Positions 6,198-6,961 of a stretch of DNA of 64,000 nt are shown here, one piece after another. The position numbers were made by a program, and so were the translations under genes. Each line of letters opens with the position of its first letter. Position 1 is the first letter of the stretch. The stretch covers positions 416,001 to 480,000 of the IMG/VR virus record IMGVR_UViG_3300014205_000170; one strand, 5' to 3'. Below the pieces are notes generated by a model. It worked only from the letters and a program-made list of their open reading frames with translations, had not been told where the DNA came from and searched no databases. The DNA comes from a virus (Duplodnaviria > Caudoviricetes).

Positions 6198-6269
6198 ATG
6201 TTAGTAGTAGTAGCAATCGTAATAAAAAAGAAAAAGAAACCTTGGTCACAAGGGACGATTGCGTATTGA
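6198..6269 (+). CDS. leader peptide 2 of the tRNA-Lys cluster (MLVVVAIVIKKKKKPWSQGTIAY)
   Basis: uORF with AAA AAG AAA AAG AAA run, followed by a terminator and five tRNA-Lys genes. Confidence 0.8.
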   Translation: MLVVVAIVIKKKKKPWSQGTIAY

Positions 6270-6291
6270 CTTTATTTTAATAAAGTTTCAT

Positions 6292-6326
6292 AAGCCTGAG
6301 TCTCTTTGTAGATTCAGGCTTTTTTA
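6292..6326 (+). terminator. attenuator terminator 2
   Basis: AAGCCTGAGTCT/AGATTCAGGCTT stem plus T tract immediately before the first tRNA-Lys. Confidence 0.8.
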
Positions 6327-6328
6327 TT

Positions 6329-6413
6329 GCACCTATGGCTCAATTGGTAGAGCAACCGGCTTTTAACCGGTGGGGTCCGTAAGGCGTTGAGGGTTCGAGT
6401 CCCTCTGGGTGCA
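6329..6413 (+). tRNA. tRNA-Lys(TTT) with long variable arm
   Basis: ACCGG-CTTTTAA-CCGGT. Confidence 0.9.
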
Positions 6414-6417
6414 CAAA

Positions 6418-6490
6418 CCTCTTGTAGCAAACTGGTTGTAGGCAATAGTCTTTTAAACTATGGGGCTTGGTTCGATTCCAAGCGGGAGGA
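6418..6490 (+). tRNA. tRNA-Lys(TTT)
   Basis: ATAGT-CTTTTAA-ACTAT. Confidence 0.85.
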
Positions 6491-6501
6491 CAACATAATT
6501 T

Positions 6502-6577
6502 CCATTCGTAGCAAAATTTGGTTTTTGCTCCTGACTTTTAATCAGAATAAAAGTGGGTTCGATTCCCACCGGATGGA
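6502..6577 (+). tRNA. tRNA-Lys(TTT)
   Basis: CTGA-CTTTTAA-TCAG. Confidence 0.85.
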
Positions 6578-6582
6578 CAAAT

Positions 6583-6656
6583 GCTTTCGTAGCTCAGTTG
6601 GTAGATGCATCTCACTTTTAATGAGAGGGTCGCAGGTTCGAGTCCTGCCGGGAGCA
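6583..6656 (+). tRNA. tRNA-Lys(TTT)
   Basis: TCTCA-CTTTTAA-TGAGA. Confidence 0.95.
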
Positions 6657-6677
6657 CTTATTAAAAAACAAAATACA

Positions 6678-6881
6678 ATGGAAGAATATTCATATTGGGA
6701 AATTTGGTACATTTCATGCGAAGGCAATGAAAGATGGACAACAGCAAGAGCTCCTATTGATTGGGAAGAATGGCAAGTTAGAGACCGAATACCCAGAGGT
6801 GGTTGTGGTGATGATGTATCCGAAGTAACATCAGTACACTCAACTTATGACGATGATTATTCGTGGGATTTTACAGAATAA
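6678..6881 (+). CDS. small acidic Trp-rich hypothetical protein
   Basis: ATG 6678; the longer 6387 call runs through tRNAs. Confidence 0.65.
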   Translation: MEEYSYWEIWYISCEGNERWTTARAPIDWEEWQVRDRIPRGGCGDDVSEVTSVHSTYDDDYSWDFTE

Positions 6882-6888
6882 CAACATT

Positions 6889-6961
6889 GCCTTCATAGCT
6901 TAATTGGTAGAGCTGCAGATTCTTACTCTGAGGGTTGGGGGTTCAAGTCCCTCTGGAGGCA
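6889..6961 (+). tRNA. tRNA-Lys(CTT)
   Basis: CAGA-TTCTTAC-TCTG. Confidence 0.9.

Follow-up and report, generated by a model that had tools for sequence, protein, structure and literature searches.

Leader 2 of this phage, a short reading frame with a run of Lys codons ahead of five tRNA-Lys genes in the window (the whole 64,000-nt stretch of DNA that was analysed), is quite likely a ribosome-dependent transcription attenuator through which the phage senses how much usable tRNA-Lys is available and regulates its own tRNA-Lys genes accordingly. On this reading, which draws on sequence comparison and folding models, the phage probably makes its five tRNA-Lys only when Lys codons are read slowly. 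The reading is supported by the conservation of the unit in related phages, by a group-wide match between leader codons and tRNA genes, by a parallel leader with seven Gln codons, and by the position-dependent folding of the leader RNA. The leader 2 region contains the following elements.

6198..6269, plus strand: leader 2 ORF, 23 codons, with an A-rich start region and without a Shine-Dalgarno sequence, as in Bacteroidota
6213-6220 / 6255-6262, plus strand: candidate outer protector helix, an 8-bp inverted repeat
6225..6239, plus strand: Lys sensor codons, five in number; the next codon is Pro in every homolog
6240-6244 / 6249-6253, plus strand: inner hairpin, which covers the antiterminator strand and is present in all five sequence types
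6244..6256, plus strand: predicted antiterminator strand, with 6300-6314 as its partner; five core pairs are invariant and one outer pair is changed on both sides
6268..6287, plus strand: AU-rich spacer hairpin 3' of the stop codon, a possible pause or scaffold element
6292..6328, plus strand: intrinsic terminator and U tract; the U tract ends where tRNA-Lys 1 begins

The initial annotation had read a leader frame containing AAA AAG AAA AAG AAA, and 6198-6269 does translate to the 23 residues that it quoted. Three AAA and two AAG codons alternate in the Lys run, and among 305 intergenic short ORFs (14-50 aa) of the genome leader 2 is the only one with five Lys in a row. It had also been cautioned that the tRNA-Lys cluster does not match the Val/Ile-rich N-terminus of the peptide. 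This caveat is largely resolved by the sequence comparison. The Val/Ile start is best taken for a spacer that also serves as a pairing arm, because it is not conserved (its Val/Ile codons are swapped for Thr, Leu or Lys in homologs) and because similar residues open all 27 leaders of the phage group, the first codons of which, those of the Gln leader included, are dominated by Asn, Thr, Ile, Lys, Leu and Val. A small membrane peptide was considered as the role of leader 2 and rejected, the hydrophobic part being too short at 9 residues.

Five sequence types share the leader 2 unit, namely the window, L002, the L017 group (L017, L018, L021, L028, and L031), L133/134, and L129/130. Each type has a Lys-rich stretch ending in Lys-Lys-Pro, the same terminator, and 3-5 tRNA-Lys genes; the leader frame, the Lys run, the Pro, the stop position and the core antiterminator pairs are retained in all five. 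A second Lys-leader type (L020, L024, L027, L035, L157-L160) keeps the Lys-Lys-Pro end and has a different antiterminator and terminator. These type-2 leaders also precede tRNA-Lys genes, some of which were missed by ARAGORN, and in L157 an insertion splits the first tRNA. All intact copies of either type stand before tRNA-Lys. Because the L129 and L035 leaders share the Lys stretch without sharing the switch, the sensor and switch modules have been recombined. A loose poly-Lys plus terminator pattern gave 32 matches in viral contigs, none of them beside tRNA-Lys, so this pattern by itself does not identify the unit; a search with the leader pattern gave 11 matches in 185,579 prokaryote genomes, none preceding tRNA-Lys, and in cultured phages the unit is absent at detectable similarity. 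Insertions were seen in or beside tRNA-Lys genes after type-2 leaders (L157 near 3900; L003, L036, L159, and L160), one of them insertion-element-like and the others homing-endonuclease-like.

The strong terminator that had been noticed between leader 2 and the tRNA-Lys genes was found at 6292-6321, with a stem of 12 pairs (about -17 kcal/mol; z -5.7 for 6270-6328) and a U tract at 6320-6328. The same annotation had proposed that an inverted repeat flanking the Lys run forms a protector-like hairpin. The repeat is present, but it is not an essential protector, being absent in L129/L130 and overlapping the antiterminator strand by only 2 nt. Elsewhere among the relatives the outer helix shows one compensatory change (L017 type) and one mismatch (L133). 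Its covariation over five sequences, with that one compensatory change, is equalled in 95 of 500 shuffles; 8 of 5000 shuffles give an 8-bp repeat with at least 4 G+C, and an 8-bp repeat of some kind arises in 16% of synonymous recodings. By sequence comparison, the conserved protector is the predicted inner hairpin (6240-6244 / 6249-6253) rather than the outer repeat.

Of the classic 1:2/2:3/3:4 layout that had been suggested, the pairing of leader and terminator (6248-6256 with 6300-6309) is real, but the geometry is not the classic one: what the predicted antiterminator occupies is the loop of the terminator and the inner part of its arms. Its partner at 6300-6314 is made up of the top four bases of the terminator 5' arm, the loop, and the first five bases of the 3' arm; a classic 2:3 helix using the 5' arm alone is thereby ruled out. 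On nascent RNA the antiterminator is predicted at -19.3 kcal/mol (z -2.9). Across the five types 91% of cells are paired, with one two-sided change, a score that is reached by 41 of 500 shuffles. A T-box or a lysine riboswitch was also considered and rejected for want of a family match at gathering score: in the Rfam covariance search only tRNA and tmRNA passed gathering, and matches to L20/L10 leaders were weak and far below threshold.

Folding of the full-length leader RNA at equilibrium favours the terminator wherever the ribosome is placed. In the nascent-RNA model, the last two stem bases were held in the polymerase. For the window leader the modelled terminator probability is then 0.98 if no ribosome is present; with a ribosome whose A site is at Val/Ile or at Lys 1-2 it is about 0.75, at Lys 3-5 it is 0.01, at Pro 0.18, and from Trp through the stop codon 0.97-0.98. 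The naked-RNA value of 0.98 is also obtained for L002 and L017 and is weaker in L129. In each of the five types the modelled minimum lies at the last two Lys codons or adjoining them, and the L017 type switches weakly. This suggests the following mechanism. The terminator would form when no ribosome is present, and likewise when one has moved beyond the Trp codon or has reached the stop. A ribosome waiting on Lys 3-5 (or on the next Pro) would cover the 5' arm of the inner hairpin and free the G-rich stretch 6244-6256, and the freed strand would capture the terminator loop before the terminator closes, so that transcription could enter the tRNA genes. The switch appears in the model only while the polymerase holds the last 1-3 stem bases, and the nulls are soft: the terminator is opened too by 8-26% of leaders after recoding or shuffling, and a full switch is obtained in 15%. 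As modelled, the switch of leader 2 is kinetic, parameter-sensitive and weakly supported by covariation. In leaders of the L017 group and L133, two successive Pro codons follow Trp; a pause there would cover the antiterminator strand and favour termination.

Could a slow-down anywhere in codons 3-15, whether at Val, Ile or Pro or caused by antibiotics or ribosome damage, open the terminator, with Lys as just one input to a general sensor of ribosome stalling? The modelled opening range does include Pro. With 3 stem bases hidden, Val/Ile stalls open the window terminator too (with 3-4 hidden, over its whole Val/Ile stretch), so that the Lys specificity is parameter-dependent. In L002 and L017, however, modelled Val/Ile stalls leave the terminator at 0.96-0.98. 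The Val/Ile codons are also unconserved, whereas both leader types keep their Lys-Lys-Pro end unchanged, and leader content tracks tRNA content over reshuffled clusters. We consider a general stall sensor unlikely.

The very strong terminator, its dominance at equilibrium and the soft structural nulls would also fit an unregulated step-down, with a leaky terminator that fixes a low tRNA-Lys level or ends the upstream unit, and with a leader that is a relic or encodes a small basic peptide. This is improbable, since the leader frame, Lys run, Pro, stop and core pairs are kept in the five types and the leader has arisen with two switch modules. If no other promoter serves the five intact tRNA genes, a stop acting constitutively 0 nt ahead of them would keep them silent, and the short, unconserved hydrophobic part makes a membrane peptide unlikely.

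The features that bear on the source of the leader 2 transcript are listed here.

3687..3717, plus strand: Bacteroidota-type promoter of leader 1 (-33/-7 elements), at the same position in L002, L028 and L133
3729..3880, plus strand: leader 1 with its terminator at 3848-3870; 29 codons rich in Thr, Asn, Ser, His and Phe, with two Lys
5836..6165, plus strand: 109-aa gene of unknown function, directly upstream of leader 2, which travels with tRNA arrays in many huge phages
7211..7236, unstranded: two-way terminator, the probable end of the transcription unit

The promoter at 3687..3717 is the sole full promoter match upstream of leader 2, which begins 32 nt after the upstream stop codon, and is the probable source of the leader 2 transcript. 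Coming from the leader-1 promoter 2.5 kb upstream, that transcript would meet leader 2 as the second gate in series. The interval 3718-6197 contains no full match to the Bacteroidota promoter consensus, the phage two-part promoter or a third enriched motif, and no terminator lies between leader 1 and leader 2. No -33 element accompanies a lone -7-like element at 4974, which is missing from L021 and L028. It had been pointed out that an independent promoter between the terminator and the tRNAs, driving them constitutively, would speak against the reading; 0 nt separate the U tract from tRNA-Lys 1, so there is no space for such a promoter. A promoter in the terminator loop was also considered and rejected: the sequence there agrees with the -7 element at 7/8 positions but is without the conserved A, and orthologs do not retain it. 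In L020 and L159 a tRNA-Cys gene ends 18-19 nt ahead of the Lys leader, too close to leave room for a leader promoter, and in L133 an inserted gene ends 1 nt before the leader start. The first leaders of type-2 loci also contain Lys codons. In LR745206.1 and L011 the tRNA-Lys genes stand under one multivalent leader without a separate Lys gate. Judging from the missing promoter motifs, the Lys gate is probably a second, lineage-specific checkpoint within the longer leader-1 operon. It is very unlikely that the attenuator works without being nested, from an undetected promoter of its own, such as a phage late promoter, within or ahead of the 109-aa gene: the promoter scans covered the Bacteroidota consensus and two genome-enriched motifs only, the -7-like element at 4974 is there and the genes upstream of the L130 leader differ, but that element is unpaired and not kept, 3718-6197 holds no full match, and the type-2 leaders less than 20 nt after a tRNA gene and the L133 gene stopping 1 nt before its leader argue against it. 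A DUF5679-like 63-aa gene at 6981-7236 of the window follows tRNA-Lys 5; an enriched motif lies upstream of it, so it may have its own promoter.

At least five leader units are present in the phage genome. Leader 1, which has orthologs in L002, L016, L028, L130 and L133, stands ahead of Phe, Ser, Asn, His and Thr tRNAs; leader 3 precedes an array of 19-21 genes; and a leader near genome position 343,827 is followed by Leu, Arg, Met, Glu and Ile tRNAs. At genome positions 346,435-346,884 (L163), a leader with seven Gln codons is followed by a terminator, four tRNA-Gln genes and glnS, and in the model it opens at Gln 2-7 and at the two codons after. The two single-amino-acid gates, Lys and Gln, both concern U34-modified tRNAs. 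Over 27 non-redundant leaders of the phage group, the match between leader codons and tRNAs is 0.572 versus 0.234 +/- 0.036 when permuted (0/20,000), a figure that overstates independence because the leaders in the permutation test are related. These leaders were chosen by position and A-rich start only, and the sensor window was fixed after the data had been seen. The tRNA clusters are heavily reshuffled across the group, and leader content tracks tRNA content.

Some further genes of these clusters deserve mention. A HisRS-like gene of 213 aa (window 5109-5750) encodes the catalytic core only, without an anticodon-binding domain, and lies 19 nt after a long-variable-arm tRNA-His; it is found in L002, L011 and other phages, whereas the operon as it stands in L028 and L133 lacks it. 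The region 4885-4966 of the window has a tRNA-like fold missed by ARAGORN and Rfam gathering, with acceptor and T arms and an unusual middle (z -2.9). A probable tRNA-Ser(UGA) at 4026-4178 and a Met/Ile2-type gene at 11693-11782, both uncalled by ARAGORN/Rfam, were read by eye.

The genes placed behind the Lys gate are the following.

6329..6413, plus strand: tRNA-Lys(UUU) 1, with a long variable arm and C at 39
6418..6490, plus strand: tRNA-Lys(UUU) 2, with A at 39, the change that gives T5 tRNA-Lys its AriB resistance
6502..6577, plus strand: tRNA-Lys(UUU) 3, with the E. coli AriB site intact (U39, C40, A41) and a 27-43 mismatch
6583..6656, plus strand: tRNA-Lys(UUU) 4, with G at 40 and U39 kept
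6678..6881, plus strand: 67-aa acidic gene of unknown function within the cassette, also in the L017 and L133 types
6889..6961, plus strand: tRNA-Lys(CUU), the fifth tRNA-Lys of the cassette

Four tRNA-Lys(TTT) and one tRNA-Lys(CTT) had been read here as divergent copies, and so they are: each of the five has an anticodon stem of its own, and identity among the UUU copies is 55-65%, with canonical anticodon loops in all four. Related loci yielded 42 distinct tRNA-Lys(UUU) with 34 different stems, a canonical loop in 37 and a full AriB site in four. It has been reported that AriB cleaves between 40 and 41 and that a U39-to-A change abolishes cleavage (PMC12409363), and that PrrC recognises anticodon bases, modifications and stem pairing (PMC1484252). 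U39 is missing in copies 1 and 2 and present in copies 3 and 4, and the full AriB site is found in copy 3. Same-anticodon copies for ten other amino acids are similarly divergent in this genome (47-64%; Pro 81%). The initial annotation had put these elements together as an inducible, diversified tRNA-Lys rescue cassette with PrrC and PARIS as the enemies in view. The diversification stands, and the attenuator reading of its Lys codons is supported; the link to PrrC and PARIS stays hypothetical, given the intact AriB site of copy 3, the canonical loops of the UUU copies and the genome-wide divergence. As far as the sequences indicate, the diversification is real and compatible with nuclease hedging, which has been proposed for phage tRNAs in general (PMC10264068), and it is neither Lys-specific nor pointing to PARIS or PrrC. 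Codon demand alone could explain the tRNA-Lys copy number, and it is a real alternative to nuclease attack because AAA is the commonest codon of the phage (8.1%); Lys is also its commonest residue (9.7%). Homologs of the 67-aa gene are mostly located away from tRNAs in other phages. Long variable arms occur on several normally short-armed tRNAs (window 4793, 5003, 6329, 12161 and 13717, and genome 344,620; Asn, His, Lys, Trp, Thr and Glu).

What shortage would the output relieve? The phage genome contains no class I LysRS, and its sole full class II match is a non-discriminating AspRS. Because no phage LysRS was found, the output would be unable to cure a lack of lysine, and what it could cure is a shortage of tRNA bodies through cleavage, decay or excess demand. 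Lysine starvation would open the switch, though extra tRNA-Lys cannot cure starvation. We tentatively raise the possibility of a two-key counter-defence circuit, in which a panel of tRNA-Lys variants that differ in their anticodon stems is released only if Lys decoding is slow at leader 1 and then at leader 2. Such a circuit would sense host tRNA-Lys nucleases by their effect and hedge against their specificities, and the seven-Gln unit would be a second monovalent gate of this kind. A weak class II synthetase match (Asp/Asn/Lys family) was seen in a 196-aa ORF at L162:823-1413, which has no NCBIfam name.

Leader-peptide attenuators control amino-acid operons (trpL, hisL, leuL, thrL, and pheL) and, with pheM, the pheST synthetase operon. 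The lysine operon of Thermus thermophilus has a Lys-codon leader that controls lysine biosynthesis in the cell; as described, it resembles leader 2 in using tandem Lys codons as the sensor. With the attenuators of amino-acid operons (the his attenuator is listed in PMC12360218) the phage unit shares a short leader ORF, tandem cognate codons and an intrinsic terminator and, as modelled, a protector, an alternative antiterminator and read-through upon a cognate stall. As modelled, leader 2 works like a classical attenuator but has no promoter match just upstream and probably sits in another attenuated operon; it also departs from the 2:3 geometry, since its predicted antiterminator invades the terminator loop and inner arms and not the 5' arm only, and its output is tRNA genes. 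The nearest functional parallel, the Anabaena trn operon, is an inducible tRNA L-array for which promoter repressor control has been proposed and attenuation is unmentioned (PMC8421152). Like the phage unit it carries supernumerary tRNA genes, induced there under translational stress, but its induction is not codon-specific. Phage tRNAs are known to counter tRNA nucleases, as T5 tRNA-Lys does against PARIS AriB (PMC12409363, PMC11464382) and in the case of PrrC (PMC1484252, PMC10264068). The cassette resembles the T5 system in its tRNA-Lys(UUU) variants that differ around 39-41, with the T5 change at 39 in copy 2, and differs from it in that copy 3 keeps the AriB site, the loops are canonical and the host is probably of the Bacteroidota. 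LR745206.1, probably one of the Mahaphage huge phages (PMC7162821), has a GlnRS 71% identical to that of this phage and four divergent tRNA-Lys behind a codon-matched leader. Its tRNA-Lys genes, unlike those of the window, have no separate Lys gate, which makes the inner gate lineage-specific. Attenuation is not mentioned in the huge-phage paper (PMC7162821). Our literature search, with most subscription journals outside its coverage, found nothing on leader-attenuated tRNA genes and no report of leader control for anti-nuclease phage tRNAs.

The purpose of phage tRNA genes is an old open question, to which codon compensation and counter-defence are the main answers. A codon-specific feedback switch would mean that the tRNAs are made on demand, and the condition that opens it (nuclease, starvation or demand) would name their purpose. 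The simplest case in which to test this is the Lys unit, with one amino acid, a control sequence of 130 nt and five outputs, and it could serve as a reporter for tRNA-Lys-cleaving defence systems.

The virus record is a complete genome of 518,809 bp with direct terminal repeats and 30% G+C. It carries about 50 tRNA genes, a tmRNA, a terminase and RtcB, and its PolyA_pol-family enzyme is probably CCA-adding. Bacteroidota-type promoters precede leaders 1 and 3, with a genome-wide count of 39 sense versus 17 antisense. The phage GlnRS is 70-71% identical to those of LR745206.1 (634 kb) and LR756502.1 (642 kb), and Bacteroidetes hosts have been predicted for huge phage genomes of at least 634 kb (PMC7162821). 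The promoter type and the predicted hosts of the GlnRS relatives suggest that the host is probably a member of the Bacteroidota. A phage-specific two-part promoter motif was found in 27 sense versus 2 antisense upstream regions, mostly in the first 20 kb and with short 5' leaders. A ValRS-like gene of 450 aa, about half the usual length (L163:791-2143), precedes the Leu/Arg/Glu tRNA cluster. A separate tRNA-Phe cluster at window 42857-43160 has a promoter and a terminator, no leader, and anticodon loops with extra bases; two further tRNA-Phe genes like those of this cluster lie at genome positions 4,818 and 17,799, amid early-type promoters.
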